Positions 12,676 to 34,735 of a DNA stretch of 64,000 nt are shown here, piece by piece. Numbering within the stretch: the stretch's first letter is position 1; each line of letters starts with the position of its first letter. The notes below the pieces were generated by a model that saw only the letters and a program-made list of their open reading frames with translations, was not told the DNA's origin and ran no database searches. This DNA is from a virus. Where the stretch lies: positions 1 to 64,000 of IMG/VR virus record IMGVR_UViG_3300032291_003679. One strand, written 5' to 3'. Position numbers and translations under genes: made by a program.

Positions 12676-12678
12676 TAT

Positions 12679-13352: not shown

Positions 13353-13573
13353 AATTTAGACAATCGGGGTCACGTGCATCTGGGGTGTCTGGGGCGTCAC
13401 GTTCGGCTCGGCGACGTCCACGTGATTTGCCCACTTTGTAGGCGACAACATGGCTGAGTAATCCCATGCACGCAGCTTATCCACCACCGCACGTTTTGTC
13501 AACTGCTTTTTAAATCTTCTTCGTAAATAAAAAATGTGATTTCTGCCAGCACCGAACATACGTTCGTACTAAT

Positions 13574-13957: not shown

Positions 13958-14006
13958 GACCGAAGGGTCTTCCACCACCGTCAATTGGTTAGCACGAGGA
14001 GAAGTA

Positions 14007-14330
14007 ATGGTTTCTGAAAACTGGAAACACACCCATAAATCTGGCAGCAGCTTTCCGCGTGCTTTCCGAGATTCTCAAAATTTCCCCACGGTTTCGCGCG
14101 GGGCTCCAACCCGAAAGAAAGACCGACAGGGCAGAAATGCATTTCTCGGATTTCTCATGCTGGTCACTCTGTACTCGGTCTTGCTGTGGCTCGCCGTGCG
14201 TGTTGCTGAATCGGCAGGAGTCGTGTCGTGGAGCGTGGGCGTGTGGGATTCACTGAAACTCGCAACGCTGTATGTCCTGTGGCAGTCGCTCTCGCTTGTG
14301 TCGTGGGGCAGTGTCAAGAGGAAGCAGTAG
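14007..14330 (+). CDS. membrane protein
   Basis: GAGGAG RBS; two TM segments. Confidence 0.55.
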   Translation: MVSENWKHTHKSGSSFPRAFRDSQNFPTVSRGAPTRKKDRQGRNAFLGFLMLVTLYSVLLWLAVRVAESAGVVSWSVGVWDSLKLATLYVLWQSLSLVSWGSVKRKQ

Positions 14331-14427
14331 GACTTACCTACACCTACTAGGTGCATGCATTGCTCATGCAAAGAGCATGCCGTGAGCATGCCTGCGAGAA
14401 CGAGCAGAACAAGTGTAGGTAAGTGGG

Positions 14428-14688
14428 TCACGACTGGTACTGCGCTTGCTGTGTGTCCAGTGAGTCAATGAGGTTTGCGAGAATCGGCAGAACACTCATG
14501 CCCTCGTTGCCTATGAGAGTAGAGAAGTCTCTCTCTGCCATTCGCACCGTGTACTCCTGTGCAATGTCACGCTTCATGCCTTCGTAGTAGTGACAGAGCC
14601 GTGTGAGTGTGTCGTACAACTCGTCCAGCAGTTCTTCTGTTCGTTCGCTTGTTTCTTTCATCGTGTGTCTTTCTAGTAACGATTCCAA
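14428..14688 (-). CDS. hypothetical protein
   Basis: ORF track; natural composition. Confidence 0.5.
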   Translation of the reverse strand: MESLLERHTMKETSERTEELLDELYDTLTRLCHYYEGMKRDIAQEYTVRMAERDFSTLIGNEGMSVLPILANLIDSLDTQQAQYQS

Positions 14689-14859
14689 GTTATCTAACTT
14701 TCCCCCTTCCCACTACCCCTCACGGAGAACCAAAGGAGTAAAGATTCTCAACGCTCGGGGCAGTGGTGGTACAGGTGTAGGTAACTCCTGTACCAACGCC
14801 TTTGGAGTGGCAGTGAGTGTCCAAGCCCACTGCCACCCCTTAGGGCGACTTACCTACAC

Positions 14860-16422
14860 CTACTCACGCTCGGGGAGTGGTGTTCCCATGTGTTCGTACC
14901 ACACCTTACGGAACATGTGAGGGTACACGCTGTGCGCTTTGCCGTTCACTTTGAGGTTGTGCAACTGCGTAATGGCTTCCTCAATGTGAGGAACAACGAT
15001 GTAGCCGTGCTGTCGTGCGTAGGTCATGCACTGCATGGAAAGCAGTTCAGAGAATCCGTCATTTGCTCCACACACTCCACCGTCTGTTACCCATACGAGA
15101 GGTGTGTTCTTGTATTGACGATTCTTTACGCCCCACTCAATCGCAGGGAAGTCCACGCCGTTGCCGTGTCCGTAGTCAATGTATTCCACATTCTCAACCA
15201 TGCGTCCCTTGTCAGCAACTACCCAAGCGTTTGGGTGTTCTCCACCTGCTCGGTAACGGTCACTGTAAATCATCACGGTTGCGCCTTGTGCGTTCTCAAT
15301 GATTTCTGCAATCTGTTCAGTAGTGAATGACATAGAACCACTTGCGTCAATGATGACCATGCCACCACTGCCACGAACGGTCTTGTCAAAGACACGCTTC
15401 GCAGGGTCGGTCATGTAACGGTGCAATCGGCGTGGTCTGCGTCCCATGTTCGTAGCAATGCGCTTCTTGCCCATTGAGCCGTAGTGATAACGAGGCAGAG
15501 GCTCACGACTGACAACCAGTTCTGCCCACCCTGTCGCTCCACCGTGGTCGGCTGGAACTACTTTCCCATGTGGGTTTCCGTCCTTGTCGCCTTCGCTGTC
15601 TCCGTCCTGATACTCGGCAGAGTGTTCACCTGTCTTGTCACCGTCATCGGACTTACCTACACCTTCGCCTTCGCCATTTCCCTTCCCCTTCTTAGGGTCG
15701 TTCTTGCGAGCCTTCGGTGGTGGGAACGAGGCGAGCCTGTCCACCCATTCTGCTAAACGCTCGGTGTGAACGAATCCGTATGGAGCAATGCCGTCATGGG
15801 TGTCGGTGCTTGCGAGTGTGCGTGACTGGTGCGACTTGCGCATTTCCTTCATTGCTCGCTTGCCAATGTCCAGCAGTGCGTCACCCCATGCTCGGTTGTG
15901 CCTGCGTACTCCGTTCAGGAATGGCTTGTGTCCAGCCGTGCCGACTGTGGCGATACAGGTTGCAACTGCACCTGCCCAATCGTTTGACTTTGCTAGTTGT
16001 TCGCCTGCTGAAAGTTCGTTTCCGTCTGCGAGGTGATTCTTCACATCAAAGCCAGCCTGCTGACAGAGGTAGTTCACTCGTAGTTCCTCAACAACTGTCA
16101 TGGCAGTAGCAGAGGCAATAGAGCGACTAACAAACACTTCCATTTGCTCGGGCGAGGGTGACACTTTCGCATGCATCATTTCATGCGCACGAACTACACG
16201 CTCTAACTCACCGTCTGCTGACGGAGCGAACATGACACGGTTGGCAATGTCTGTACGAGGCTCGCCACGCACTGCACGACAGTCCTCAACGACCCAACGC
16301 TCATGGGCTAGGTCTTTGCGACCAAGCATGTTCGGTTCGGCACGGCTTGCGCCCCTCTCCACATCTGACAGTGGAGAGGGAAACGACTTACCTACACCTG
16401 ATTTGGTGGGGTTAGTGGACAT
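14860..16422 (-). CDS. HExxH metallopeptidase-like plus VWA domain protein (CobT/MoxR partner)
   Basis: HEMMH; DASGSM MIDAS motif; VTDG; adjacent AAA+ gene. Confidence 0.8.
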   Translation of the reverse strand: MSTNPTKSGVGKSFPSPLSDVERGASRAEPNMLGRKDLAHERWVVEDCRAVRGEPRTDIANRVMFAPSADGELERVVRAHEMMHAKVSPSPEQMEVFVSRSIASATAMTVVEELRVNYLCQQAGFDVKNHLADGNELSAGEQLAKSNDWAGAVATCIATVGTAGHKPFLNGVRRHNRAWGDALLDIGKRAMKEMRKSHQSRTLASTDTHDGIAPYGFVHTERLAEWVDRLASFPPPKARKNDPKKGKGNGEGEGVGKSDDGDKTGEHSAEYQDGDSEGDKDGNPHGKVVPADHGGATGWAELVVSREPLPRYHYGSMGKKRIATNMGRRPRRLHRYMTDPAKRVFDKTVRGSGGMVIIDASGSMSFTTEQIAEIIENAQGATVMIYSDRYRAGGEHPNAWVVADKGRMVENVEYIDYGHGNGVDFPAIEWGVKNRQYKNTPLVWVTDGGVCGANDGFSELLSMQCMTYARQHGYIVVPHIEEAITQLHNLKVNGKAHSVYPHMFRKVWYEHMGTPLPERE

Positions 16423-16424
16423 GG

Positions 16425-17147
16425 TTATTTCACTCCGTCCACTGCGAGAGCGTCAAGAATCTGCTTTGCACGATTTCCGAAAGTGAGTTGGCATGCTCGC
16501 TCCATTCCGACTGCCTTGCGCAACTTGTCCAACGCCATGAAAGCACGGAGAGAGATACGAGCCTCGCCACCGTCAGCCATGCGAACGGCGTATCCACGCA
16601 GGTCAGGAGAAAGACGGAGAAGTGCGTTTGGGTGTGGTTCGTTGATACGAACACGAATCGGGAAACGGTCAGCGAGTGCTGTTGGCAGTTCGCTCATGTT
16701 CTCAATGTTCGTGGTCATCACGGCAGAGAATCCGTCAAGTGGACGGACGATTTCACCAGTCTCGGGGTGTTGGAATGTTGCAGATTCAGGAGAATCCAAC
16801 ATGGCAAGAAGTGTTGCGAACACATCGCCACCAGCCTTGTCCACTTCATCAACAATAAGACGACCACCTGTTGTGCCGTTGCCTTTCCATGCTTTGAGAG
16901 CAGAGCCGTCAAGCCACTGGAAGCCACCGTCTTTGCTAGGCATGAAGCCACCAGTTACATCCATGTTGGTCATGTCCTCGGTGCAGACCAAGCGATGTGC
17001 GCCAGCCTCAATGTTTCCGAATGAAAGACCAGCGTAGGTCTTTCCTGTTCCAGCAGGTCCGAACAGAATGATTCTGTCAATACCCGAGTCAAGTGCGTCC
17101 TTGACATCTTGCCAGCACTGTGGCAATACCTCTTGTGTTGTGTCCAT
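16425..17147 (-). CDS. MoxR/CobS-type AAA+ ATPase
   Basis: GPAGTGKT, IVDEVD, ALADRF; start reassigned to MDTTQ after AAAGGAG. Confidence 0.88.
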   Translation of the reverse strand: MDTTQEVLPQCWQDVKDALDSGIDRIILFGPAGTGKTYAGLSFGNIEAGAHRLVCTEDMTNMDVTGGFMPSKDGGFQWLDGSALKAWKGNGTTGGRLIVDEVDKAGGDVFATLLAMLDSPESATFQHPETGEIVRPLDGFSAVMTTNIENMSELPTALADRFPIRVRINEPHPNALLRLSPDLRGYAVRMADGGEARISLRAFMALDKLRKAVGMERACQLTFGNRAKQILDALAVDGVK

Positions 17148-17484
17148 TGTTTGCTCCTTTGTAAGCGATTGGTTAGGGACAAGCAAACCATACCACTCGT
17201 GGGTCAGACTTCCCAACTTCACTTGACACCTTGCAACACAAGGGATTTGGACTTACCTACACCTATTGTTCTGACGATTCCGTGCCACTTACCTACACCT
17301 CTTATGTGTGGTCTGTGCGTTCCGAGCCACCTGCCGTGCGCCCCAACGCCGAGCCAGCCCTTACCTGCCCTGCCACCCCGAGTGCCTGCGCCTTCTTCGG
17401 GTGGAGCCCCGCGTTGTTCGGCGAGTCGGGCGGGGCTTAGGCCGACTTACCTACACCTAATGGGGACTTACCTACACCTAATGG

Positions 17485-17970
17485 TTACTCGTTGTCTTTG
17501 GGGTCTGAGATTCGCCACAGCCCCTTCTTGACCTTGATAAAAAGTGGAGATTCGCTCACATACTTCAGTGTTGTCTGGTACGAGAACCCAGCAACCTCAA
17601 CGAGCTGGTCGGTGGTGTATTCCTCACCTCGGTGTTCGTCTACCCACTTCTCAAAAGTTCCGTATTTATCTTTGCGTCTCTCGGTCTTGATGATTCCGTT
17701 ATTCGCAGTGCTGATGTGGGTAAGATACTTCTTGACGAACTCATTTATTACATCGTCACTGACGGAGTAAAAGCGAAGCATTGATACAGGGTTCCCATTG
17801 CACCCTTCCCTTTGCCACTTCTCCATGACATACAGCGCACGGACTGTCTCTGCAATGCGCCACATTTCCTGATGGTTGGCGTATTTCTGTTGTGGCTTCT
17901 TGTACTTCTTATCAAACTCGGCATACAACCGTGTGTTTTCTTCATGCACGAAATCAATAGTAAAGTTCAC
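17485..17970 (-). CDS. hypothetical protein with C-terminal HTH-like segment
   Basis: GTG start after AAGGA; YTTDQLVEVAGFSYQTTLKYV. Confidence 0.6.
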   Translation of the reverse strand: MNFTIDFVHEENTRLYAEFDKKYKKPQQKYANHQEMWRIAETVRALYVMEKWQREGCNGNPVSMLRFYSVSDDVINEFVKKYLTHISTANNGIIKTERRKDKYGTFEKWVDEHRGEEYTTDQLVEVAGFSYQTTLKYVSESPLFIKVKKGLWRISDPKDNE

Positions 17971-18321
17971 TTCTTTTTCCTTATTTAGATGTACCTGCAG
18001 CGCAACCCGTATGGACTCTAGCACTCGTCATCCAGACTTCCCCAAGTTGCAAATAAAAAATGAAAAACTGTGTTGCCAGTAAGCCCTATGGCTCGACTTC
18101 CACCACCGTCAAAGGGAAACCAACTAGAAAATCCTGCCGCCGGCTCGAGAACTGTTTTTCAAAAAATCAAAAAATCTGACACCCCTTAGTTGCTACGTAG
18201 CATTTTGACCGTTTCGTGCGGGGCTCCATCCCCCAAATGGCGAGGAAAAGAAAGAGGAGTGTCACTGCCAACTGAACAGCGACACCCCTCTTGGTGTAGG
18301 TAACTGAAAGGGGGGACTTAC

Positions 18322-18531
18322 CTACACCTGACCTATAACTACGAACTGGTCTCCTGCTTCCTCAACAAGACCGAGGTTGCTTCCGTTGTCCCATTTGACA
18401 AACACCGTTCCGATGTCGTCCACAAAGTCCACCGTCCCCTCTTCTCCTGATTTGAGTTTCGTGTAGGGGTCTGTGCATGTGATTAGCCTGACCCTCTTGC
18501 CGACTAGGTGTTCGTTTCTTGCTCGCCTCAT
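18322..18531 (-). CDS. DUF4314-like protein
   Basis: GKRVRLI..DPY..GTVDFVDDIGTVFVKWDNGSNLGLV. Confidence 0.8.
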   Translation of the reverse strand: MRRARNEHLVGKRVRLITCTDPYTKLKSGEEGTVDFVDDIGTVFVKWDNGSNLGLVEEAGDQFVVIGQV

Positions 18532-18674
18532 GCTGGAACCTCGCTTTCTGTATTGGTGCTGATTAGTAGGCGAATGTCTAAGAGCAGGTCGGTCATCTCT
18601 ACTGATGACACAATGTCCCTGCCCGAGCAGTGCGCTATTGCTTTATCCACTAGGGCGACAAGTTCAGTATCCAT
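18528..18674 (-). CDS. small hypothetical protein (48 aa, MDTELVALVDKAIAHC...)
   Basis: ATG directly after a 14-mer copy; ATGA coupling to the next gene. Confidence 0.55.
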   Translation of the reverse strand: MDTELVALVDKAIAHCSGRDIVSSVEMTDLLLDIRLLISTNTESEVPA

Positions 18675-18681
18675 GACTTAC

Positions 18682-19377
18682 CTACACCCCCTTGTCTTTC
18701 TTTTTCGGAGCCTTGTCAAGCATGTCTTTGTAAGCAAGCGTCTTGGTGGCAAGGTGCATGTAGCCAACCGTGGCAAGTAAAGCGTCAGGAATACGACCAT
18801 TTGTTTCATGCTCTTTGTCCACTGTGAATGTGTTGCACATTGGTTCTTCGTCAAACTCGGGAACTCCGTGGTCGTCATAGCGATAGAGGCTCGCAATGCT
18901 CCACACATTCGTAGCGTTCCAATCCACGGCAGTCATTATGATTCCTTCACGAACATCAGAAAATGGATTTTCTTTGTAGTCCTTCTCAAAGTCGCCTCTG
19001 TCGTGGTTATGTGCCTCTTCTTCGGTCATCTCTGACTTTGCGTATCCCTCAACGAGTAGAACAATAAAGTCAAACGGACGAATCGGGAGTGACTTCACAA
19101 CATCTTCGTAAGCGTCAAAAATGTCCTCTTTGTGAATGAGAGGAATCATCGCCAAGTGGTATGGCTTTGAGAGTGAGAACTCATGTTGGTAGTCCACGCA
19201 TGCTTCGTGGTCGGGATTACTGTCATTGCTCTCAACGGCAACAAGGAACAGTGGTGGACTGTCTTGCATTGGCTCGTCTTTGCACATTTCTGTCTTTGCA
19301 AAGACGGCTCGGTTGAGCAAATCTTCCATTATTGCTCTGATGTCGTTGTCAATAACTTCATTCTCTTGTGGTGTCAT
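18682..19377 (-). CDS. hypothetical protein
   Basis: GAAAGGGG RBS; own promoter; stop codon lies inside a 14-mer. Confidence 0.75.
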   Translation of the reverse strand: MTPQENEVIDNDIRAIMEDLLNRAVFAKTEMCKDEPMQDSPPLFLVAVESNDSNPDHEACVDYQHEFSLSKPYHLAMIPLIHKEDIFDAYEDVVKSLPIRPFDFIVLLVEGYAKSEMTEEEAHNHDRGDFEKDYKENPFSDVREGIIMTAVDWNATNVWSIASLYRYDDHGVPEFDEEPMCNTFTVDKEHETNGRIPDALLATVGYMHLATKTLAYKDMLDKAPKKKDKGV

Positions 19378-19499
19378 TGGTTGCCCCTTTCAGGCGTTTT
19401 GTGTTCATTGGAAGCATACCACTTGTGGGACAGACTTCCAATAGTTACCTACACTGGATAGTGGGAGTCGGTACAAGCCCCCACATGCCAGCCATTTTT

Positions 19500-19724
19500 C
19501 TACTTCTCTCCGAGCAGTGTGTTCACCGATACTCCAAGAGCATTACTTACAGCGAGCAGTGTTTCCACACTCGGCGTGAACTGCCCATTCTCAATACGGT
19601 TCACCGTTTTTCGGTCAAGACCTGCACGGTTGGCAAGTTCCAACTGTGACCAGCCGTTCTCGCTTCTGTGAACTCGTACGATTTCTGAGATTTGCTCAAT
19701 GGATTTAGTTGATGATGTTCCCAT
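19500..19724 (-). CDS. XRE/Cro-C1 HTH transcription regulator
   Basis: WSQLELANRAGLDRKTVNRIENGQFTPSVETLLAVSNAL. Confidence 0.9.
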   Translation of the reverse strand: MGTSSTKSIEQISEIVRVHRSENGWSQLELANRAGLDRKTVNRIENGQFTPSVETLLAVSNALGVSVNTLLGEK

Positions 19725-19787
19725 GTTGGGATTCCTTCTTTCTTTATTGGGGGATTATTTGTGTGTGTGTAGTTACCTACACCTATT

Positions 19788-20528
19788 TCAGACAGACGAA
19801 ATGAATGTGCGTGGCGTTCTCCCTTCTTTATCGCAACGGCGAACATAGGCGAGGTGCTTCTTGTATTCGTTCATGCACAAAGACATGTCGGTATCGCATT
19901 GGTCTAAAAGGTGGTGGTTCCACTCGGAGTGTGCTTCCCACCATTCTTCCATTGCGTCATCGGGGGCGTCCTCTGCCTCTGCTTTTTCACAGAGTTTGCT
20001 CAACTCGGGGGTGAGATGTTGGGGGTCACGCTCGCCAGCCTCAATGATGATTCCATTATGAAACACTGACCAACAGATGAACGCCATTGACTCTTCATCA
20101 GAGCAGGTTCCAAAAATAAGATTTGGATAAAGAGTAGAAATCTTTTGGATTAGTCCGTCGGCAGGCGACCATGCAGATTCGTAACGCACAGAAATCGTGT
20201 TTTTTACAGGGGTTGTGTCGTCAATCTCGGGTCGGCATGCACCCCACTTACTTCCCCAAGTTTCGCAAGCGTCTAAGTACCCATCAAATCCATCACTTGC
20301 GCTAGTGAACGCAGTGAATGTAGTTTCTACTCCATCAGCGTTAGTCGTCTTGATTTCCTTTGACCCTCGTGGGTCTAGTGGTACGAGTTTATTCAGGTCG
20401 TACTCAACGGTAACTCGTGATTTATCTCCCTCAACTTTGACATCGGCAACTGTAATGTCTTTGACGAACTTGGCGAGTTCTCGCTTATTCCCCATGACGG
20501 TCATGTATGTGTAACACCAGTTAGGCAT
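19788..20528 (-). CDS. DUF1281/YubB-like protein
   Basis: MPNWC..WGSKW..ESAWSP motifs; GAAAGG RBS. Confidence 0.75.
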   Translation of the reverse strand: MPNWCYTYMTVMGNKRELAKFVKDITVADVKVEGDKSRVTVEYDLNKLVPLDPRGSKEIKTTNADGVETTFTAFTSASDGFDGYLDACETWGSKWGACRPEIDDTTPVKNTISVRYESAWSPADGLIQKISTLYPNLIFGTCSDEESMAFICWSVFHNGIIIEAGERDPQHLTPELSKLCEKAEAEDAPDDAMEEWWEAHSEWNHHLLDQCDTDMSLCMNEYKKHLAYVRRCDKEGRTPRTFISSV

Positions 20529-20811
20529 TTGATTTTCCTTTCGGTTTGGTAGATACACAGAGCGTACCACCCTCGGGACAAACTTCCCCGAGTTACCTAC
20601 ACCTCTCTTCCACCACCGTCAAAGGGTTTAGTGGGGTGGGCTACCTGCTGCGCCCCCCGTCACGCGAGACCTCTTGCCCCCGACCCCGACTTGCCTGCCG
20701 AGCACCCCCAACTGCCTGCTCGTGCTGGAGCCCCGGCCGACTCGGAGCATGCGGGGCTTCTTGTCAAAGTATCCAATCGGATACTTTTTGTGCTGGAAAA
20801 GTTACCTACAC

Positions 20812-21114
20812 CTAATCGGCTGGGTCGGCAGAGAGCAGGGAAACAGCCCTGACCCTGTGACCGACTCTCTTGGAGTCGTGAATGAATGTCAGTAGGTTGC
20901 GTAGGCTGGGAATGTAGGTAAATGTCTCGTCCACAGACCAGCCGTAGTCGTCAAATAGGGCTTCACTCTCTGGCTCGGGAGCGAAGGAAATGGTAAAAGT
21001 GTCATCACTGGTGTTGCCCGACCAGCGCACAACTATTGACGCCCCAACCAGCAACTCATGTCCTAAACGGACACGGCGAAAGTATGAGATAAGGAGAGAG
21101 ATGTACAGGAACAC
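20812..21114 (-). CDS. hypothetical protein
   Basis: Start and stop both overlap 14-mer copies. Confidence 0.5.
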   Translation of the reverse strand: MFLYISLLISYFRRVRLGHELLVGASIVVRWSGNTSDDTFTISFAPEPESEALFDDYGWSVDETFTYIPSLRNLLTFIHDSKRVGHRVRAVSLLSADPAD

Positions 21115-21124
21115 TTACCTACAC

Positions 21125-21631
21125 CTATCTTTCCCACTCCTTGTAGACCTGCATTGCTGGCTTGTGTCTGTCCTCGGCAGAGAGTGACCCAACGAACTTG
21201 GTCAGTTCGCCAAGAATGATGAGATAGTCCACTTCCGTCAGACCATGCTCGTCCACTATCCATTTCACGATGTTGTCGTAATCGTCCCAAAGAATCTCCA
21301 TAGCCTGAACTGCTGTTGTCGCCAGCGTGTAGTGGTTCTCCCACAGTAAGTCTCGCACTTCTTCTCTCATGTCTGGACTGGTCATAGACTTACCTACACC
21401 TTCTTTGTTGCATTTACACATGTCGGCAACATCACACTGACACCAGTCTGCTGTCATGTCGCAGTAGAAACAATAGCGAGTATTCTCGTCTTTCTCGGGA
21501 ATCAGTCCACAAGTTGGACAGAGTGGGCGATACATGTCGTCAAGAATCTCGGAAAGTCGTTTCATTTCTCCCATTTCAGTCCTCACATTCACAGTCGTAC
21601 AAATCTTCTCCACATTCATCGCAGAGGTCAA
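21125..21631 (-). CDS. hypothetical protein (Cys-rich N half joined through GVGKS to a second domain); true start probably near 21574
   Basis: ORF track; internal 14-mer followed by ATG at 21385. Confidence 0.55.
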   Translation of the reverse strand: MTSAMNVEKICTTVNVRTEMGEMKRLSEILDDMYRPLCPTCGLIPEKDENTRYCFYCDMTADWCQCDVADMCKCNKEGVGKSMTSPDMREEVRDLLWENHYTLATTAVQAMEILWDDYDNIVKWIVDEHGLTEVDYLIILGELTKFVGSLSAEDRHKPAMQVYKEWER

Positions 21632-21881
21632 GTTCGTCTAGTTCTACATCGTCAATGTCCAAACCTTTATCATGGGCAAACCATGTCATAACGGTCAGAA
21701 GTAGTTTGTCGTAGTCGCCAGAAGTTGCTTCCTTGTGGAACTCGTCCCACTCGTGATGAATCTTGTTCTGCTTCATGATTCGGCTCACTCGTCCGAGAAT
21801 GGCAAACGCATTGCCGTCCTCTCCAACAAGTGGAATGTTGATGTTTGGATACTTCGGGTTGATTATGGTGTAGGTGCTCAT
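21576..21881 (-). CDS. conserved phage hypothetical protein
   Basis: LVGEDGNAFAILGRV..EATSGDYDKLL motif. Confidence 0.75.
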   Translation of the reverse strand: MSTYTIINPKYPNINIPLVGEDGNAFAILGRVSRIMKQNKIHHEWDEFHKEATSGDYDKLLLTVMTWFAHDKGLDIDDVELDELDLCDECGEDLYDCECED

Positions 21882-22093
21882 TGTGACTGTTCTCCTGTTT
21901 CGTCGTTGATAGCAAATGCGTCATGAATCTTTGCCCCAGCAAGTTCTGCTTCCTGACGGGCAAACTCCCATGCGAGTTTCTTTGCTTCTGCCATGCTCTT
22001 GGCTTCCACTGTTGTGGATTCGTGCCATTCAGCAAGCCCTTGTGGTTCCTGCTTGGTCAAGAAGACCATCAGTTCGTATGTTTGTGTTGCCAT
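21878..22093 (-). CDS. hypothetical protein
   Basis: GAAAGGG RBS; own promoter. Confidence 0.7.
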   Translation of the reverse strand: MATQTYELMVFLTKQEPQGLAEWHESTTVEAKSMAEAKKLAWEFARQEAELAGAKIHDAFAINDETGEQSQ

Positions 22094-22460
22094 GATTTCC
22101 CTTTCGCATTGGCTTCGCCATCACAGTACCACACAGGGGACAGACTTCCCAAAGCACAGAGTTACCTACACCCACACGGTCTTCCACCACCGTCATTGTG
22201 TTGAGAGATACCTGCTGCGCCCACCCGTTGTTTTTTCATTTTTTTGTTTTTTCAGTTTTTTCGGGTTACCTGCTGCGCACCCCCACGCGTTCCAGCGACT
22301 GCTTCCCGAGGAAGCCCCGGCCCGATTCGTGGTCCGATTCGTAGCGGGGCTCCTACTCCAAAGCCCGACTCGGGAGTCACTTATCTAGCCGTGACCCGAG
22401 AGTTACCTACACCTATCCCCCCTCGCCCAACCGAGACGAGAGAGAACAGGTGTAGGTAAG

Positions 22461-22802
22461 TCAGAGCGTGAACTGACCACCTCGTTGCTCGTAACGCTGA
22501 ACGGCTGTTCCGACATGCTCGCAGTAGTCGCCGTCTGCCAGCGACCAGCCCTCGGGACGGTCATACGCAGTCCACACGGCGAAAGGGTGGAGAGAGTTGT
22601 GGGGCAGGTGGCACAGAACGAGCCACCAAGCGTAAGCGTCCACATCGCTGGAACGAACCAGCCAGCAAGCGAGAACGGTCACGGCATGCTCCATGCTCGT
22701 GGGCGTGATGACTTCGCCAGCACGGAGCATGCGCATGGGGTATGTGTCTGTCGGGGACTTACCTACACCTTCCACGGTCACTTCCCCTCTCCGTTGAGCC
22801 AT
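22461..22802 (-). CDS. hypothetical protein (true start probably near 22781)
   Basis: ORF track; contains GVGKS. Confidence 0.5.
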   Translation of the reverse strand: MAQRRGEVTVEGVGKSPTDTYPMRMLRAGEVITPTSMEHAVTVLACWLVRSSDVDAYAWWLVLCHLPHNSLHPFAVWTAYDRPEGWSLADGDYCEHVGTAVQRYEQRGGQFTL

Positions 22803-23227
22803 GCGTCAAACTGCTCGTCTGTCAAGGTTGTGACCTTTGGAGAGAGGTCAATGTCTGCGATAGTCGCTTTGACTAGTTCGCTTACTTCCTCATTAGCGAG
22901 GAACGCATGAGCCACTTCTACGAAACGGTCAGAGATGTACTGCTCGGGAACATCGTGGTTCTCTCCGTCGTACTCGCCTTCTTGGCTTAGTGCGCCAAGA
23001 ACGACCACATCGCCAACGAGAGGACGACCAAACAGAACGCTTGCGATGATGTTGGGAGCAAGTCCGATGAGCAGACCTTCGTCGTTCACATAGCCAACGA
23101 TGTCATCGTTGCGAACGCAGTCAATCCAGCCACCACATAGTTCATTGAGAACAAGATGACCTTCCTCGCTCGGAATGTCTGTTTGGTAGAGGTCGCCCTC
23201 TGCCGTGATTACTAGTGCATTTGCCAT
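22778..23227 (-). CDS. DUF3846-like protein
   Basis: GGWIDCV..YVNDEGLL..PN..LVGDVVVLG. Confidence 0.8.
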   Translation of the reverse strand: MANALVITAEGDLYQTDIPSEEGHLVLNELCGGWIDCVRNDDIVGYVNDEGLLIGLAPNIIASVLFGRPLVGDVVVLGALSQEGEYDGENHDVPEQYISDRFVEVAHAFLANEEVSELVKATIADIDLSPKVTTLTDEQFDAWLNGEGK

Positions 23228-23558
23228 TGCTAACCCCTTTCAGGTTGTGTATTGGTGGCGACCACAGCGTACCACTAGTGGTTCAGACTTCCACCCGAGA
23301 CTTACCTACACCTGTTGCGCAGGCTTGCGAAACCTACCTGCCGAGCACACCCGTGTTCTCTCCTCCCCCCTGCTGGGGGTGGGAGCCCCGTCTGTGGTCG
23401 GGCATCGGGCGGGGCTTCTGCCCCCAACCCTCGCCCCTCGGTGGAGTTACCTACACCTAACCCAACGCCTGAACCCCCTTGCGCCTCTCGGACACTCGGG
23501 GGCTGATAGGTGTAGGTAAGTGGGGGAGACTTACCTACACCCTTTCAGGCTCGGTTGG

Positions 23559-23960
23559 TCAGACTGCTTCTGACTTGGCAGTGGGCTTGACTGCGCCCTT
23601 CGCAGGGCGTACCAGCACTCGTACTGACGAGGTGACGGACACGACTGCTTTGATGACTTTCGCAGACACTTTGCCTTCCTTCACAGCCCTGTCCCACGCA
23701 GAGGTGTCCACAGAGGGCTTGGTGACGGTACGGAACAGAGGTGCGCTGATGAGGTCACGCAACTTGTCGGTGTCAAATGAACGACGGTCACTTGGGCTGA
23801 CCTTGATGTTGAGTTCTGCGTAATCCAGCGTTTCTACGCCGTGCTTCGCATAGACATTCAGCAAGAGTTCACGAGCCTCGTCGTGAGCCTGCTCTGCTTG
23901 TTCTCGGGCAGTGAGAGCGTTTAGAAACGCCTCGGTTGCTTCCAATACTTCCTTGTTCAT
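23559..23960 (-). CDS. hypothetical protein (coiled-coil N-terminus)
   Basis: GAAAGGG RBS; own promoter. Confidence 0.7.
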   Translation of the reverse strand: MNKEVLEATEAFLNALTAREQAEQAHDEARELLLNVYAKHGVETLDYAELNIKVSPSDRRSFDTDKLRDLISAPLFRTVTKPSVDTSAWDRAVKEGKVSAKVIKAVVSVTSSVRVLVRPAKGAVKPTAKSEAV

Positions 23961-24524
23961 TTGGACACCCTTTCAGTGGTAGATGAACGCCACACGCCGT
24001 GTTGCTTGTGGCTTGCCACAAGCATACACCCCCTCGGTCAGACTTTCCAACTTCGCTTGACGGACTTACCTACACCTAATCCGAGTTCCCCTTCCAGCCA
24101 GCACCTCTCGGATAGATTTACCTGCTATGCCCACCCGTGTTGCGCCCCCTTCCCTTTGGTCGGGTGGAGCCCCGCAGGTTTGTGGTCTAGGCCGGGGCTC
24201 CTGCCCCACAAGTGGTTCGGCAACACAGTCGGGGAAGCACGGCAGGTAATGGAGATTTATGTGTGGGATTACACGGGTCGGCTTGCTCGGATACGGCAAC
24301 TGACTGATGAGGCAAACAGGCTGACTGCTCTTGTTCGTGAAGCGAACGACAACACTCGTGCGAGCCTTCGCAGGGGGGAGTTCAGAGTTACCTACACCAC
24401 CTCTGCCGACCCTCTGCCTGAATAGGTGTAGGTAAGTCCAAGGACAAGAGAAAGGGGCTGACTCGCCTTCTTGGCAAGCCAGCCCCTCTCGGGTGAAGTC
24501 CCCTGTTGAGGTAGGGAAAGGGGA

Positions 24525-24968
24525 TTAGAGGTACTTCACCACGCTGTGATAAGTGCTTGTGGACACAACCTCTTGGTCGCTCATCTCCAACACTCGGATA
24601 GCGTTCTCCAACGCTTCCTTGTCGTTCTTGTATTCCCATTCACGGTATGTCTCAGGGCTTTCAGGCTGTTGTGCGAGCAGAGCCTTCGGAAGGGACACGG
24701 TGAGTTCTACGACTTCGTGAGTGTCGGGAACGGTGTTTCGGTGATAACCGACAATGGTGACATTGACAGGCTTCGCTTTGCCGTTCTTGACAGAAGCGAT
24801 TACTGCCTTCTCAAAGTCTGCTTTCCACTTGTCGTAAGCCTTCTTGTGGTCGGCTTCTTTCTTGTCGTTGTTGGCGAAGCGTTCCTCACGCTCTGCCAAT
24901 GCTTTACGCAAGGCTGTAAGCAGAACGCTCACTTTCACCTTGACGCTGATGTTGCTGTTTCGTGCCAT
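24525..24968 (-). CDS. hypothetical protein
   Basis: Start MARNSN after GAAAGGG; own promoter. Confidence 0.7.
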   Translation of the reverse strand: MARNSNISVKVKVSVLLTALRKALAEREERFANNDKKEADHKKAYDKWKADFEKAVIASVKNGKAKPVNVTIVGYHRNTVPDTHEVVELTVSLPKALLAQQPESPETYREWEYKNDKEALENAIRVLEMSDQEVVSTSTYHSVVKYL

Positions 24969-25056
24969 TGGTTTCCCTTTCGGTTGGAGTTGTAGGCACA
25001 CGAACAGTACCACTCGTGGTTCAGACTTCCGAGAGTTACCTACACCTAGATAGTAA

Positions 25057-25090
25057 GAAGCCCCCGTCAGGGGGGACTGACAGGGGCTTC
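25057..25090 (-). terminator. hairpin downstream of 25117-25587
   Basis: GAAGCCCC(C)GTCAG..CTGAC(A)GGGGCTTC stem. Confidence 0.5.
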
Positions 25091-25116
25091 CGACTTGGGG
25101 GAACTAGGACTGTGCG

Positions 25117-25587
25117 CTAGTTGCTCTTGGTTGCGCCTGACTGTACGAACTGCTGGATTGCGTTAGCGAGTGAACCACTTGCGCTACCTTCGTCAGTAAT
25201 CACATTATTTGGCTCGTCAGCGAAACGCAAGACGCTGGCAACGCTTTGACGGTTGGCGATACAGGCAAGACGAACACGCCTGCGCTGTGGGTGCTGTGAA
25301 GGTGCGCCTTCCACTTCGCCATTCTCACCAAGTGGGGAAGCCCAACCTGTCGTGACGATAAGTGTCCAAGCGTATGCGCTTGCTACCAATGCGTTGTAGT
25401 CATTGTCAAGCAGGTCATACACATCAGTATGAGACTCAATGAACACAAGTTTCGGTGCGCCTTCGGGGGTGTAATCCACGCCGTAAAGGTATGCGCCTTC
25501 TAAGGCGAACGGATTAGACTCGTCACCCTTTGAGAGTAGAGAATGTATCTCTGCCTCTATCTGTTCTGCTATTGCTACTGTGTCCAT
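25117..25587 (-). CDS. hypothetical protein
   Basis: GAAAGGG RBS; own promoter. Confidence 0.7.
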   Translation of the reverse strand: MDTVAIAEQIEAEIHSLLSKGDESNPFALEGAYLYGVDYTPEGAPKLVFIESHTDVYDLLDNDYNALVASAYAWTLIVTTGWASPLGENGEVEGAPSQHPQRRRVRLACIANRQSVASVLRFADEPNNVITDEGSASGSLANAIQQFVQSGATKSN

Positions 25588-25953
25588 TGGATACCCTTTC
25601 GGTTGGTTGTTAGTGGAACACCGTCAGCGTACCACGCTTAGTACAAACTTCCCGACTTACCTACACCTGTCAGGTCGCTTTCCACCACCGTCATTCATTT
25701 GAGGGGGTGTGCTGTTCCTCTCAAACGCCCTGACCTGCCTGCCGTACCCACCCGTGTTCCCACCCCGATAGTTGCGCTCGCAACCATCTTGGGCGTGGGA
25801 GCCCCGGCCTTTCCGAGCGTAGCGGGGCTCCTGCCCCGAAACCAGCCGAGTAGTGAATAGGTCGGGGACTTACCTACACCTCACATGAAAGGGGGGTGTG
25901 AGGTGTAGGTATCCCGAACGCCTAGCCCTGTGGGGTGGTGGGGCTAGGCGAGG

Positions 25954-26244
25954 CTAGGGGCGAGGCGAGGCTACGGGCAGGTGAATGGTCTGCCATGTGT
26001 CTAGGGTCGTGCCGTACATGTCCACGAGCGTGTCAATAACGGCAGACACCTCACCCGAACAATGACGGTGAGCAATGTCCCAGAACGTGTCTCCACTTTC
26101 CACATTCACGGTGAGGGTGTCGCACGAGAATGTCGGGGGCTTGACCGTCTGACGCAGACCCCACAGACCGACCCACAGTAGAGCGATGATGAGAGGCGTG
26201 AACACCACGAAACGGCGCACGGTGTACTTACCTACACCTCTCAT
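25954..26244 (-). CDS. membrane-anchored LysM-domain protein
   Basis: TM followed by VESGDTFWDIAHRH..TIHLP. Confidence 0.75.
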   Translation of the reverse strand: MRGVGKYTVRRFVVFTPLIIALLWVGLWGLRQTVKPPTFSCDTLTVNVESGDTFWDIAHRHCSGEVSAVIDTLVDMYGTTLDTWQTIHLPVASPRP

Positions 26245-26690
26245 GCCGTTACCTCTTTGAGTGCGATGCTCTCCCATGGGAAAGCGTTGTGATAGACCGT
26301 GACATCGTGACCATTCTCGGCTCGGTCAATGCGCCGAACTTCCAGCATTGTGTCGTGAATAATGTAAAGCCATTCAGCCCACGCTAGGTCTGTGTCGTTC
26401 TGGGTGAACAGGTCGCTGTCCTCTAATGTCACATCGGTGTGGGCGTATCCGTAGCCCTCTACTAATGCGTGTTGTTCATAGAGGTTAGGAACTCCACTCT
26501 TTGTGAGTGGCTCAATCTGTGACCATGACGGCGTATCGGTGATGAGGGTCTGAACGACCTTACCTACACCATCTCGGGCTACTAGTTCTCCCAAGACATA
26601 AACCATGCGCTCGGGATAGTTGTCCCAATGGGTGTAGCGACCTTCCCACCCTTCGTTAGTTGCTCTCGCAACTATTCCTCGTGTTGCCAT
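26241..26690 (-). CDS. conserved phage hypothetical protein
   Basis: MATRGIV..YTHWDNYPE motif; own promoter. Confidence 0.75.
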   Translation of the reverse strand: MATRGIVARATNEGWEGRYTHWDNYPERMVYVLGELVARDGVGKVVQTLITDTPSWSQIEPLTKSGVPNLYEQHALVEGYGYAHTDVTLEDSDLFTQNDTDLAWAEWLYIIHDTMLEVRRIDRAENGHDVTVYHNAFPWESIALKEVTA

Positions 26691-27102
26691 TGTTGTCCCC
26701 TTTCGGTTGGTGATGTAGTGGACACCTGAACTGTACCACCACACGGACAGACTTCCGACCCGACCTACCTGCCGAACCCACCCGTGTTGAGCCCCTGCCC
26801 TGCTTGTCCGTAGGGAGCCCCGTTGCTTTGCCGATTCGTAGCGGGGCTCCCACCCCCAAGCCGACCCCTCGGTGAACGGGTTGGCTCGGCAGGTAGCTCA
26901 AACATTCTGCTATTCCCTTTGTTCCTGTTTGTGAGGAGAGAATAACGGAGTTGTCTGTGTCGCCTCTCGCCTCATTCTGTGTCGCCTCTCGCCTCATTAG
27001 GTGTAGGTAAGTCTCGGGGGCAGTCTGCTGACAACAACATACCTACACCCAATAGGTCATCCCATTAGGTGTAGGTAAGTCTCGGGGCAGGGGCAGAGAG
27101 GG

Positions 27103-27366
27103 TTAGTCTAGGCAGATACAGGTCGGGAACTCGGATGTATGACCGTTCAGGTAGCGCACATGGAGAATGGCACAGTTGCGAGTCTTTGCTAACCACAGTT
27201 GAGTGGTGTCATCCTCTGCACGAATGAACTCCGAGGTGGACTCGCTAAAGATACCCCAACCGTTGATAACGCCTTCGGGCGAGATAACGGTGACTTCGCC
27301 TACGCAATACCAAGGAGTAGGCGTAGCAGGAGTAGGGGCTGTAAGTGGTGTAAGTAACTCTGTCAT
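27103..27366 (-). CDS. hypothetical protein, leaderless
   Basis: ATG 6 nt after the -10 hexamer of the promoter at 27373. Confidence 0.6.
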   Translation of the reverse strand: MTELLTPLTAPTPATPTPWYCVGEVTVISPEGVINGWGIFSESTSEFIRAEDDTTQLWLAKTRNCAILHVRYLNGHTSEFPTCICLD

Positions 27367-27446
27367 GTCATTACCGTACCACGCTAGGTACAGACTTCCA
27401 AACAGAGTTACCTACACCCAATCGGACTTACCTACACCCAATCGGG

Positions 27447-27860
27447 CTAGCCGTAGATGAGCGTTCCGAATACGGCGAACTGAATAATCACATCGCCTGC
27501 CTCTGCGTCAATGTCAAGGTCGCAATCGCCATCGCTGTAGTAATCAAAGCCGATGTCCTGTTTCTGCGCAGAACACGCCGAGATGTATCCGTTGTAGATG
27601 TCCTGCACCGTGAGAACACGATGAACAAGGTCAGAGTCATCATCGCCATCAGGGTCAATGACTGCAACTTTCAGGAAAGGCTGGTCATCGCTGTCGGGAA
27701 TGTTGTTGTAATCCACGCCGACCCACCAATCGTATGACTCCCACACGGAGTCAATGATTGCCGAGATGAACTCCGTGCGCTCAATGAGCGTTTCAGGCTT
27801 CACGGTTGGATAGTTGCGCTCAACCAATGTGGTTGAGTCAAGTGGGGTGAGTTCGGACAT
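27447..27860 (-). CDS. conserved phage hypothetical protein
   Basis: DAEAGDVIIQFAVFGTLIYG C-terminus; GAAAGG RBS. Confidence 0.7.
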   Translation of the reverse strand: MSELTPLDSTTLVERNYPTVKPETLIERTEFISAIIDSVWESYDWWVGVDYNNIPDSDDQPFLKVAVIDPDGDDDSDLVHRVLTVQDIYNGYISACSAQKQDIGFDYYSDGDCDLDIDAEAGDVIIQFAVFGTLIYG

Positions 27861-28247
27861 TGTGTGCCTGCCTTTCGGTTGGTGGTTGCTGGCGACACCA
27901 ATGTACCACGACAGGGTCAGACTTCCCACTCGGACTTACCTACACCTGTTGGGGACAACCGAGCGAAGCGAGAGCGTCAGACACCCCCGACCTACCTGCC
28001 GAACTCCCCCGTGTTACGCCCACGAGGGGTTGGGCGTGGGAGCCCCGGTTGATTTGCGAAGTGCAACGGGGCTCCTCCCCCACGCAGGCTTTGCGCTGTG
28101 AACGGGTTGGCTCGGCAGGTAGCGCACAAGTTTATTATTTTGTTCGTTCCTTTTTGTGGGGGGCAATACGACTCGCCTACACCCAACAGGTCTCCCCGTT
28201 AGGTGTAGGTAAGTCAGAGCGCAAGTTGTCGGGAGAGTTACCTACAC

Positions 28248-28649
28248 CTATTCGTCATCGGACTCAATGACTGGAACAACAACGCTTGCACTGCCCGTAG
28301 GTGCGTCATGGTGCGACAGAGAGAACTCAATGCGTTCCGTGCCGAACACTTGGTAACGGAGAGTCCATGCTGAGTTCACGGTGATTCCCTGAACGAAGTC
28401 ACGGACATTGTTGGCAGTGAACACGCCACCAACCTCACGATTCCACAGACGGATTCCTGAAACTCGGAAAGTATCGGACTCAGCGAGAAAGTACTGAATG
28501 GAGTTCTCAAAGAATCCCAAGTCCGTTTCGTAACAGTCTCCGAAACACTCAGGCGATTCCACGAACTCATGCGTTTCCTCATCGGCAATAAGACAGGTGC
28601 AGGTGTTGGTGAGTTCACCCCATGCAGTTGGAGTTTCGGTAATGGTCAT
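28248..28649 (-). CDS. hypothetical protein
   Basis: Start MTITET after GAAAGGA; SHHDAPTG motif. Confidence 0.7.
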   Translation of the reverse strand: MTITETPTAWGELTNTCTCLIADEETHEFVESPECFGDCYETDLGFFENSIQYFLAESDTFRVSGIRLWNREVGGVFTANNVRDFVQGITVNSAWTLRYQVFGTERIEFSLSHHDAPTGSASVVVPVIESDDE

Positions 28650-28903
28650 GTCCGTTCCTTTCGGTTGGTGGTAAGGGACAGCCACAGAGTACCACGCACG
28701 GGACAGCCTTCCCGACTTACCTGCCGTGTTCCCCCGTGTTGCGCCCCCCTCTCTTGCGAGTGGGAGCCCCGTTGCTTGCCCGAGCATGGCCGGGGCTCCT
28801 GCCCCCAAGACGACCCTCGGCAAACGGGTGAGCGCAGCAGGTAGGTGAGAAACTTTCTTTTTTTTGTTTGACATTCTCACACGCAACGACACTTCTACTA
28901 AGT

Positions 28904-29209
28904 ATGACTACCTATGGTTCACACACACCCCTTCCATACACGACCAAGCCACGCCACGAGTGGACACAGCGAGACTTCTTTGATTACGAGGTGGACTCGT
29001 ATTGCCGTTGCGCTACTCGTATTCGTTATCGCTCTCGTGAGTGGCACGAGTTCACGGAACGCTTCCTGCCGTATTGCGAGGATTGGAACGGTTGTTGGGT
29101 TGCAGAGGAAGCGTGGCACGAGTTCACGCTCTATCTCACTCTCCCTGAGGGCGAGTATGTGCCTGAGGAATACCCTAAGGGCTGGCACTTCCGTAGGGGT
29201 TACGACTAA
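28904..29209 (+). CDS. hypothetical aromatic-rich protein
   Basis: ORF ends next to a reverse-orientation 14-mer. Confidence 0.55.
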   Translation: MTTYGSHTPLPYTTKPRHEWTQRDFFDYEVDSYCRCATRIRYRSREWHEFTERFLPYCEDWNGCWVAEEAWHEFTLYLTLPEGEYVPEEYPKGWHFRRGYD

Positions 29210-29285
29210 CAGGTGTAGGTAACATTCGCAATACGCCACTTACCTACACCCATTCGCAACGGAATAGGTGTAGGTAAGTCGGGGG

Positions 29286-29594
29286 TTATTCGGACTCGCA
29301 ACGCCCACACAAGTAGTCAGCACCCCAAGCGTCACCAATGTAAGTGCCGTGCTTGCAGTAGAGACTCGCTTGGTATTCAGCCTCTCGTGCTTCACGAGCC
29401 TCGTAACGCTCGTAGTAAGCGTCATAGTGCTTCTCACAGCGTGGGAACACAACGAACGCACCTGAACGGCGATAACGCACAGGCAGAGTCATGTGATACT
29501 CCACAACGCCCTCACAAGGGCTGTCCTCGTGGTGGTGGTCTAAGCAGTCCTCGTGCGTGAGTTCTACTGTTTCTTCTTCGTGGTCAATGCTCAT
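29286..29594 (-). CDS. Cys/His-rich hypothetical protein
   Basis: ATGA coupling; 14-mer before the ATG. Confidence 0.65.
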   Translation of the reverse strand: MSIDHEEETVELTHEDCLDHHHEDSPCEGVVEYHMTLPVRYRRSGAFVVFPRCEKHYDAYYERYEAREAREAEYQASLYCKHGTYIGDAWGADYLCGRCESE

Positions 29595-29791
29595 GAGTTA
29601 CCTACACTCTTTCTTAGTTGTTCAGCGTTGTATTTACGGTCACGCTCAATGCCATTCAGCACGGCGAGTATTTGCTTCTCGGATAGAACGCCTTTGCGCT
29701 CAAACTGAAACAGCAGGTTGGCGTAGAACTTGTTGCGAGTGCGATTAGCGCACAAGTAGTCATACGCTCTGTCAAGGTCAGTCAGTCTCAT
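29591..29791 (-). CDS. small hypothetical protein
   Basis: FYANLL..KGVLSEKQ motif shared with 40912-41418. Confidence 0.65.
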   Translation of the reverse strand: MRLTDLDRAYDYLCANRTRNKFYANLLFQFERKGVLSEKQILAVLNGIERDRKYNAEQLRKSVGNS

Positions 29792-29982
29792 TGTCCTGCC
29801 TCATTGGCAAGTTTTTCGGCGTATCTAATCGCCTTGTCACGGTAAAAGAATGCAACTGTGCTTTGTTGTATGTACGGTTTTTTCTCTTGCATAAGAAACT
29901 TGCCGTTGTGCTGTATGTGGTAAGTCAGTCTCATTGGACAATACAAGACTGAATAGTTACCTGCTGTGTGGATTGTTTCCAT
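29788..29982 (-). CDS. small hypothetical protein
   Basis: GAAAGGGG RBS; own promoter. Confidence 0.65.
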   Translation of the reverse strand: METIHTAGNYSVLYCPMRLTYHIQHNGKFLMQEKKPYIQQSTVAFFYRDKAIRYAEKLANEAGQ

Positions 29983-30337
29983 GTGTTTCCCCTTTCAGTT
30001 GGAACGCCCTAACTGTACCACGCACGGTTCAGGCTTCCGATAGTTACCTACACCTCTTGGGGACAAACGAGCAAAGCGAGTGCGTCAGTCTCACAGGACT
30101 GAGTCACCTGCCGACCCGACCCGTCACGCCCCCCTCTTGGGGCTACCTGCCGAACCCACCCGTGTTGCTCTCTTGGGGGTTGGGGGTGGAGCCCCGGCGT
30201 GAGCGCACAGCGCGGGGCTCTTGCCCCAAAGTCGCAGAGCCGAGAACGGGGCAGAACGGCAGGTAGGTCGGAATGTCCGATTACCCGACTTAGGCAACCT
30301 CTATACAGATGAGAGCGAAAGAGCGAAAGAAACACAG

Positions 30338-30580
30338 ATGACAAACTCGGACAGATACGACAACTCACTAAGCGTTTCCAGAGTCCTTTACGACGAACTC
30401 CGTGACGGTTTCGTGTGCGCCTTCTGCCTAGACGACTTCACCTTCTCGCAACTCCACGCGACCTTCGGTGGAGACATTCTCCCAATGCCAATACAACTCA
30501 CCAGCAAGACAGCGAGAGCGTTGGCAAGCGAGCCGTGCCTTATTTGCGACTTGTCGTGTTCACGGTTCTTAGACGACTAG
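30338..30580 (+). CDS. small Cys-containing hypothetical protein
   Basis: CxxC..CxxC; ends at a 14-mer doublet. Confidence 0.45.
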   Translation: MTNSDRYDNSLSVSRVLYDELRDGFVCAFCLDDFTFSQLHATFGGDILPMPIQLTSKTARALASEPCLICDLSCSRFLDD

Positions 30581-30659
30581 GGACAGACTTACCTACACTC
30601 ATTAGGTGTAGGTAAGTCCGAGAGTCCTAGCGTTCGCGCTAACAGGAACGCTCGCGAGC

Positions 30660-33680: not shown

Positions 33681-33777
33681 CCAACTAGGTGTAGGTAAGT
33701 CTCACGGGAAGTCTGAACCGTTGGTGGTACATTCCTTCTGTCGGCAGGACCGTCTTGCCGACAGAAAGGGGCCACCA

Positions 33778-34728: not shown

Positions 34729-34735
34729 GTAACTC

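Follow-up and report, generated by a model that had tools for sequence, protein, structure and literature searches.

A 33-kb block purged of restriction-type words in an uncultured tailed-phage genome, possibly DNA exposed early to host Type II enzymes

We describe a 33-kb block of an uncultured virus genome in which many short words of the kind read by Type II restriction enzymes are almost entirely missing, while the rest of the genome contains them at near-normal frequency. The window analysed here is the first 64,000 bases of a virus contig that measures 158,021 bp (IMG/VR record IMGVR_UViG_3300032291_003679; the genome is labelled G000 below), and the part of the genome outside the block, about 125 kb, is called the backbone. 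An initial annotation of the window had claimed that ten 4-bp palindromes are depleted between positions 14,331 and 30,600, and had proposed that this DNA is exposed to restriction before the remainder is protected, as in the first-step transfer of phage T5 or the early DNA of T7. The depletion is confirmed, and the block is larger than the annotation had it. We favour the explanation that it is an early island exposed, in a T5-like way, to the Type II enzymes of the host before protection exists; on the evidence below we regard this as reasonably probable. The window is divided as follows:

1-14,099, no strand: left backbone flank; palindrome content normal except that GATC is absent (0 copies).
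14,100-47,150, no strand: the whole restriction-word-free block, 33 kb or 21% of the genome; GC content 53% versus 46% in the backbone.
14,100-30,200, minus strand: sub-block B, in which about 25 small genes form a leftward array and more words are avoided than elsewhere in the block; also without TCGA, ACGT, GGCC, CGCG, CCGG and CCGC.
30,200-47,150, no strand: sub-block C, made of short divergent gene units; AT-palindromes and AGCT are still absent, and CG-words are patchy.
47,151-64,000, no strand: right backbone flank; palindromes normal except that GATC is absent (0 copies); carries an Rpf-like transglycosylase gene, an RmlA-D operon, ThyX and three tRNA genes.

Between 14,331 and 30,600 the ten words are nearly gone (AATT, TTAA and ATAT 0 copies each; TATA, AGCT, TCGA and ACGT 2 each; CGCG 5, GGCC 6 and CCGG 8), with 31-102 copies of each in the flanks, where the annotation had said they occur freely. 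The counts also agree with its statement that CATG, GTAC, TGCA, GCGC and CTAG persist. The regional difference holds under Markov correction, with ratios far below 1: for 14,001-30,600, observed/expected counts from the maximal-order model are 2/84 for TCGA, 2/76 for ACGT, 1/48 for AATT, 3/57 for AGCT, 6/54 for GGCC, 8/54 for CGCG, 8/44 for CCGG, 0/23 for TTAA, 0/16 for ATAT and 2/15 for TATA. In all, 10-11 palindromes have ratios of 0-0.15 in the interval 14.1-30.2 kb, and 11 of the 16 4-bp palindromes are avoided, CATG and GCGC being untouched. The non-palindromic word CCGC/GCGG is depleted as well (6/49 in 14,001-30,600), in both of its orientations.

An end at 30,600 proved too early, since the depletion continues to 47,150. 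The edges lie at 14,079-14,098 and 47,153 and are sharp to about 100 nt; AATT, TTAA, ATAT, TATA and AGCT together have only 19 copies in these 33 kb and are back at 47,153. Over the whole block, observed and Markov-expected counts are 4/80 for AATT, 1/36 for TTAA, 2/39 for ATAT, 4/32 for TATA, 8/112 for AGCT and 8/97 for CCGC. Past about 30.2 kb the CG-words are patchy: CGCG returns together with TCGA at 30-32 kb, GGCC does so at 33-34 kb, and the stretch at 36-41 kb, across a SNF2/DUF932 module, has both TCGA and ACGT. Longer and interrupted words are also purged from the block: CCWGG (0/38 and 1/31 in its two halves), GGWCC, GGNCC, CCNGG, GCSGC, GGATG/CATCC, TTSAA (0/29) and GGTACC (0/8). 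GANTC, TCNGA, ACNGT and GTNAC are at normal levels there.

Depletion of this type was sought over the whole 158-kb genome and was found nowhere outside the block. Apart from GATC and GGCGCC, every word has an observed/expected ratio of 0.8-1.0 in the backbone, whereas in the block the ratio is near zero; sites are common outside and nearly absent inside, as with T5-type tolerance of sites outside one segment. GATC, which the initial annotation did not list, does not occur once in the 158,021 bases (about 405 copies expected), and GGCGCC is nearly gone from the backbone (1 versus 22 expected), as it is in the relative labelled G004. Staphylococcus phage K is free of GATC, and T7 is poor in sites. 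The genome-wide absence of GATC is avoidance of this classical, whole-genome kind. Under-representation of Type II palindromes over whole phage genomes was reported by Rusinov et al. 2018 (PMC6286503), and the block resembles that pattern in having such palindromes below Markov expectation. Classical avoidance, however, is described for genomes as a whole, whereas here a strong avoidance of many words ends abruptly, within about 100 nt, at two gene boundaries.

The constraint acts on DNA words rather than on proteins or codon frequencies. When synonymous codons are shuffled within each gene, so that protein and codon usage are kept, the genes of sub-block B contain 1 word of the AT-set versus 97.7±8.8 in the shuffles, and 3 words of the CG-set versus 146.6±8.6. 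For sub-block C the figures are 12 versus 113 (AT-set) and 166 versus 222 (CG-set). Control palindromes are unaffected (172 versus 179), and backbone genes are close to the shuffle expectation (340 versus 405 for the AT-set and 274 versus 317 for the CG-set). The loss of words is a matter of how codons are arranged, not of composition.

Several simple causes were ruled out. A shift in GC content fails because both the Markov expectations and the codon-usage-preserving shuffles still predict hundreds of words; by a rough estimate the removal of the words would itself raise GC by about 0.7 points, not 7, and the GC shift needs a separate explanation. A generic avoidance of palindromes does not fit five palindromes that persist, lists that are specific to each lineage, and the avoidance of the non-palindromic CCGC and GGATG. 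A cause at the RNA level is contradicted by the symmetry of the avoided set under reverse complement. Synthetic or recoded DNA is excluded by independent metagenome assemblies of diverged relatives that share the block and its junctions.

Comparison with a collinear IMG/VR relative (G001; 145 kb, nucleotide identity 72-80%) indicates that selection continues. The aligned part of the block has 1,302 substitutions over 6,511 positions (20% divergence), and contains 17 forbidden palindromes in G001 and 10 in G000, versus 171±12 if the same substitutions were placed at random; control words and a backbone control follow this random-substitution null. As the words stay nearly absent at such divergence, continuing purifying selection must be keeping them out. 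CCGC/GCGG behaves differently in the two genomes: G000 has 4 copies (null 46), whereas G001 has 44, which is the null level. This purge is private to G000, so one specificity has been gained or lost since the split.

The trait belongs to a family of phages. A search with the 520-aa protein encoded at the left border of the block returned 80 related loci at 32-87% identity, and we compared six whole genomes: G000, G001 and four further complete ones (G002, G003, G004 and G006). The five relatives measure 140-156 kb. GATC is absent from all six, and in every one the same flanking genes enclose one block of 30-38 kb, whose GC content is 3-9 points above that of the backbone. In G000, G002 and G003 one edge is 0.8-1.0 kb past the border gene's stop, and the other precedes the start of the transglycosylase gene by 0.9-1.0 kb. 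The lists of missing words differ among the six: the block of G004 is purged of TTAA, ATAT, TATA, CATG, TGCA and CGCG but not of AATT or AGCT, and that of G006 (about 102-138 kb; loci L237-L244) is purged of CATG (7/177) and TTAA. Among 36 non-redundant related loci, each with 5 kb or more of sequence to either side, depleted words fall on the block side only in 145 cases, on both sides in 24 and on the backbone side only in 3, a split that is predicted if constraint is stronger on the block than on the backbone. In 33 of the 36 the block side has the lower pooled observed/expected ratio. The trait reaches relatives with about 45% marker identity, and one-sided depletion fades in distant relatives that contain GATC.

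These comparisons bear on the idea that the block is a historical relic, imported from a word-avoiding element and under no present selection. Such an origin would accord with the different GC content and codon usage of block and backbone, with a depletion that is patchy by module, and with the unrelated block and backbone lists of G006. It is nevertheless extremely improbable: the words are still out at 20% divergence (the 17 versus 171 above), CCGC was purged after G000 and G001 split, the edges are equally placed relative to the flanking genes in three genomes, and the trait extends down to the marker identity just mentioned. A divergence of 20% also excludes recent recombinants that share one imported block.

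The remaining forbidden words sit where the initial annotation had placed them, in a patch near 18 kb and in recurrent regulatory elements, here a GC-rich hairpin:

18,040-18,290, no strand: intergenic patch with several forbidden words (TCGA, CCGG, ACGT and CCGC at 18,093-18,218).
20,727-20,761, no strand: one copy of the hairpin GGAGCCCCG-N-CGGGGCTCC; others lie near 17,400, 22,310, 24,165, 25,798, 28,038, 28,762 and 30,187.

The hairpin, GGAGCCCCG-N12-20-CGGGGCTCC, occurs in about eight copies within 17,400-30,220 and is the main refuge of CCGG, GGCC and GCGG in the block, these words being at the stem-loop junctions; presumably its function outweighs site avoidance. Rfam gave no match at the patch or anywhere else in the block. 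A second repeat is far more frequent. The 14-mer AGGTGTAGGTAAGT has 76 copies, all at 11.7-46.5 kb and 75 of them inside the block, and the 13/14-mer GGTGTAGGTAAGT has 70-76 copies at 11,765-46,520 of G000 and 38 in G001. Despite a terminase 95% identical to that of G000, G002 lacks the array and has only one near-match of GGTGTAGGTAAGT, which argues that the regulatory repeat of the block turns over faster than the backbone.

Codon usage also sets the block apart. Its GC content at third codon positions is 0.56, against 0.45 in the backbone. The phage has five tRNA genes (Thr-UGU, Lys-UUU, Leu-UAG, one with anticodon CAU, and Arg-UCU), which read ACA, AAA, CTA, AGA and probably ATA (or AUG):

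8,410-8,484, 53,462-53,537, 54,389-54,468 and 54,673-54,749 of the window, and 76,644-76,719 of the genome: tRNA genes.

The A-ending codons matched by these tRNAs are favoured in the backbone, and all five are rarer in the block (for block and backbone respectively, AAA 0.33 and 0.57, AGA 0.11 and 0.33, ATA 0.12 and 0.31). This usage fits early expression, in which block genes would be translated before the phage's own tRNAs become available.

The favoured explanation can be set out in steps. The block would be an island of pre-early or early genes whose DNA has to survive naked, unmodified and double-stranded while Type II enzymes are active. Synonymous rewriting would have rid it of the target words of the enzymes present in the host population, and selection would keep them out. 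The remaining 125 kb, with thousands of such words, would meanwhile be beyond the reach of the enzymes, most likely because it has yet to enter the cell (T5 transfers its DNA in two steps) or because it is otherwise shielded. Restriction would then be neutralised by island products or by proteins injected with the DNA. Restriction enzymes are suggested as the selecting agent by an avoided set that is word-specific, symmetric under reverse complement and shaped like Type II targets; first expression of the island and staged entry are what we infer from the pattern as a whole. Since one cut anywhere kills the phage, avoidance in only one fifth of the genome implies that the other four fifths are out of reach. 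The genome-wide avoidance of GATC and GGCGCC, in turn, implies that whatever reads those two words is not neutralised.

The closest precedent is found in T5-like phages, which resist Type I, II and III enzymes unless a site lies in the first-step-transfer DNA, the protection of the rest being undetermined (PMC10644984, the 2023 BF23 paper). The restriction work on first-step transfer in T5 and BF23 is that of Davison and Brunel 1979, as represented in PMC10644984 and PMC12455610. As in the block, restriction in T5, BF23 and other Tequintavirus members depends on sites in the early segment only, many sites occur elsewhere, and the early genes are small, mostly uncharacterised and in transcription units of their own. 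There are differences: T5 is a siphovirus whose segment of 8-10 kb is part of a long terminal repeat and is bounded by a repeat-rich non-coding stop region, whereas the phage described here is a myovirus, known from sequence alone, with a 33-kb block in which we found no stop region and detected no A1/A2 homologues. We know of no report of a statistical purge of about 20 words of 4-5 bp in T5. The logic demonstrated by experiment for first-step transfer in T5 and BF23 matches this pattern; the comparison with T7 in the initial annotation seems to add little, a single gene orientation being found in only half of the block.

A second precedent is likewise experimental. Murciaviruses are restricted only through motifs, of Type I, in the region injected first (PMC12455610). 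As in the present case, selection by restriction-modification falls on a sub-genomic, first-exposed and hypervariable early region, the leading region of these Autographiviridae. That system, however, involves a single Type I motif in a podovirus of about 40 kb, whereas here many Type II-like words are concerned and the case is drawn from sequence. Leading regions of conjugative plasmids offer a likeness by analogy only, the element studied here being a complete tailed-phage genome, and plasmid DNA also enters single-stranded; these regions are reportedly the subject of work by Wilkins from 1996 and 2002. DUF932 proteins and SNF2 helicases are common in them. A 2026 survey found plasmid leading regions to be GC-rich and codon-adapted but not consistently palindrome-depleted (PMC13478746); unlike them, the phage block shows both signals very strongly.

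How far does the evidence carry the claim of exposure before protection? On one side, the avoided set consists of Type II targets (4-bp palindromes, 5-bp interrupted palindromes, and CCGC in both orientations), purifying selection is ongoing and specific to lineages, and the block is a coherent set of small genes with repeats of its own and a codon usage independent of the phage tRNAs. On the other side, a number of findings weigh against it. A repeat-rich non-coding stop region was sought at 13.1-14.9 kb and 45.7-47.4 kb, and only short two-copy repeats at chance level were found; a stop signal of another kind than that of T5 may exist at the edge. The part of the block with the longest word list lies at opposite ends in different relatives, so that polarity, and with it a simple gradient of entry within the block, is not conserved. 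In G006 it is the backbone that is partly depleted of AGCT (81/255), TCGA (92/321), ACGT, CCGG and GGCC, and the block is not, which breaks the nesting of the two lists. All contigs are circular assemblies with overlaps of 121-127 bp (121 bp in G000) that are k-mer artefacts, so physical ends and the order of entry cannot be read from them, and when genome ends were sought from the contig ends of relatives, the breaks were scattered. The nearest cultured relatives of the terminase, psiM2 among them, are only 42-43% identical, and the packaging type is not settled; psiM2, which we take to package by headful, illustrates the difficulty, since headful packaging would randomise the DNA injected first. 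Known anti-restriction families and the T5 pre-early proteins A1, A2 and dmp gave no match among about 40 block proteins (compared with PHROGs, and 10 of them also with Pfam). We also know of no single function that neutralises all Type II enzymes.

A rival course would be a race without staged entry: all of the genome would enter together, the early block alone would have to survive until it is transcribed, and cuts elsewhere would be tolerated or repaired after takeover. Avoidance limited to the block, codon usage of an early type and the lack of evidence for fixed ends would all suit such a course. The 125-kb backbone contains about 3,900 copies of the ten listed words, however, and simultaneous exposure would presumably leave pieces of tens to hundreds of bases that a single infecting genome could not rebuild. 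We consider this course unlikely.

The backbone might instead be protected chemically, by a bulky or unusual modification, with the early block left unmodified, for example so that the host RNA polymerase can read it immediately, and relying on having no sites. The sugar-nucleotide genes RmlA-D adjoin the block, and there is a weak match to DUF1599 (24.4 bits, below the curated cut-off), a domain linked to nucleotide modification. In actinobacterial phages, though, the cell wall or virion glycans are the more plausible targets of Rml gene products, and no mechanism is known for sparing one 33-kb stretch from replicative or general post-replicative modification. The genome was searched for enzymes that could protect the backbone in this way, and no DNA methyltransferase (including the Dam type), DpdA or ThyA-like hydroxymethylase was found; ThyX is present. 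The avoidance of GATC and GGCGCC in the backbone further implies that it can still be read by sequence-specific enzymes. Chemical protection therefore seems rather unlikely to us.

The genome-wide absence of GATC would fit a GATC nuclease carried by the phage, and the block could on that model be avoiding the targets of nucleases with which the phage destroys host DNA. A DpnII- or MutH/Sau3AI-type nuclease was searched for in the genome without success, about 20 specificities would need about 20 nucleases, avoidance in only one fifth of the genome would go unexplained, and the word lists change between close relatives. We rate this possibility as very improbable.

Exposure before protection, our preferred explanation, may also be more finely graded than a division into two. 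TCGA and ACGT are kept in the SNF2/DUF932 module and excluded from sub-block B, which suggests that exposure has more than two tiers; a mosaic origin of the modules could account for this just as well. For the family at large we put forward, tentatively and with more doubt than for the island itself, that these freshwater actinobacterial myoviruses stage the delivery or exposure of their genomes, that the 30-38-kb pre-early island encodes a broad switch-off of Type II restriction, and that the list of missing words reads out the enzymes of the host population.

That selection acts on first-exposed DNA has already been published for T5 and murciaviruses, and has been proposed for plasmid leading regions. 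A literature search returned no account of a phage family whose conserved architecture includes a 30-38-kb island lacking about 20 specificities. If the explanation is true, the pattern is a marker, readable from sequence, for phage DNA that is exposed first, and can be used on uncultured phages. The island or co-injected cargo would then encode a general protection against Type II enzymes, comparable to the unsolved function of T5. Dozens of diverged relatives with different lists and a conserved core (the VWA/AAA+ pair, the SNF2 helicase and DUF932) provide a comparative handle on candidates, and comparison of the lineage-specific lists with host methylomes could help in linking phages with hosts and in mapping restriction pressure in lakes. 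The block is moreover a clear positive case of the target-depletion signal that is inconsistent in plasmid leading regions (PMC13478746).

The block holds about 65 mostly small genes, mostly of unassigned function; about 30 have no annotated PHROG function. Sub-block B is a single leftward array, and orientations are mixed in sub-block C. The better characterised genes are these:

14,860-16,422, minus strand: family-wide marker gene at the left border of the block; 520 aa, no Pfam match, phrog_33218; ESM Atlas neighbours with VWA/CobT_C.
16,425-17,222, minus strand: MoxR/CobS-like AAA+ ATPase, partner of the border gene; PF07728 AAA_5, E 4e-12; conserved in all six genomes.
37,219-39,171, plus strand: SNF2 helicase; PF00176, E 4e-26; a small gene lies between it and DUF932.
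39,674-40,699, minus strand: DUF932 protein; PF06067, E 3e-38.

The language-model neighbours of the border gene product point to a VWA/CobT-like protein. The SNF2/DUF932 module (37,219-40,699) keeps TCGA (7-14 per kb) and ACGT, and has lost most AT-palindromes. It is present in all six genomes at 53-95% identity, which marks it as old, and TCGA and ACGT are kept in G000-G003. The AT-palindromes are only partly purged from the module in G002 (at about 120.0-124.6 kb) and in G003 (at about 52.3-60 kb), where it forms a leaky island within the block. One block protein gave a weak ParA-like match. Strong acidity (pI about 4.1, Asp plus Glu up to 26%) marks several small proteins of the block, namely those at 22,778-23,227, 27,447-27,929, 34,372-35,074 and 36,123-36,398. 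Their composition is like that of DNA-mimic anti-restriction proteins, and they are possible candidates for such mimics.

The purge has a side effect on annotation: without TTAA, TATA and further AT-rich words, many stop codons are lost from the non-coding frames of 14,100-47,150. Long, overlapping, spurious open reading frames consequently appear on both strands of the block, and can mislead annotation that is based on open reading frames.

The contig ends overlap, giving a circular assembly, and portal, large terminase, tail sheath and major head protein are all encoded; judged by these predicted genes, the contig is a complete genome of a tailed phage with a contractile tail (a myovirus). 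In a megablast search against cultured phages the block had no match, and the right flank matched at tRNAs only. A complete dTDP-rhamnose-type operon (RmlA, RmlB, probable RmlC, RmlD) lies with ThyX at 49,269-53,415, about 2 kb past the right edge of the block. The RmlB is 60-71% identical to genes of Acidimicrobiia/Actinomycetota metagenome-assembled genomes, and the phage also encodes an Rpf-type transglycosylase and a protein with an LPXTG anchor; together these features hint at a host among the Actinobacteria. Outside the window, the stretch at 144,000-148,000 of the genome is also of odd composition (GC 0.52, with 40 copies of GCGC, 1 of ACGT and 1 of AGCT in 4 kb). It contains a 1245-aa open reading frame (144,738-148,475), which is probably a repetitive tail-fibre-like gene.

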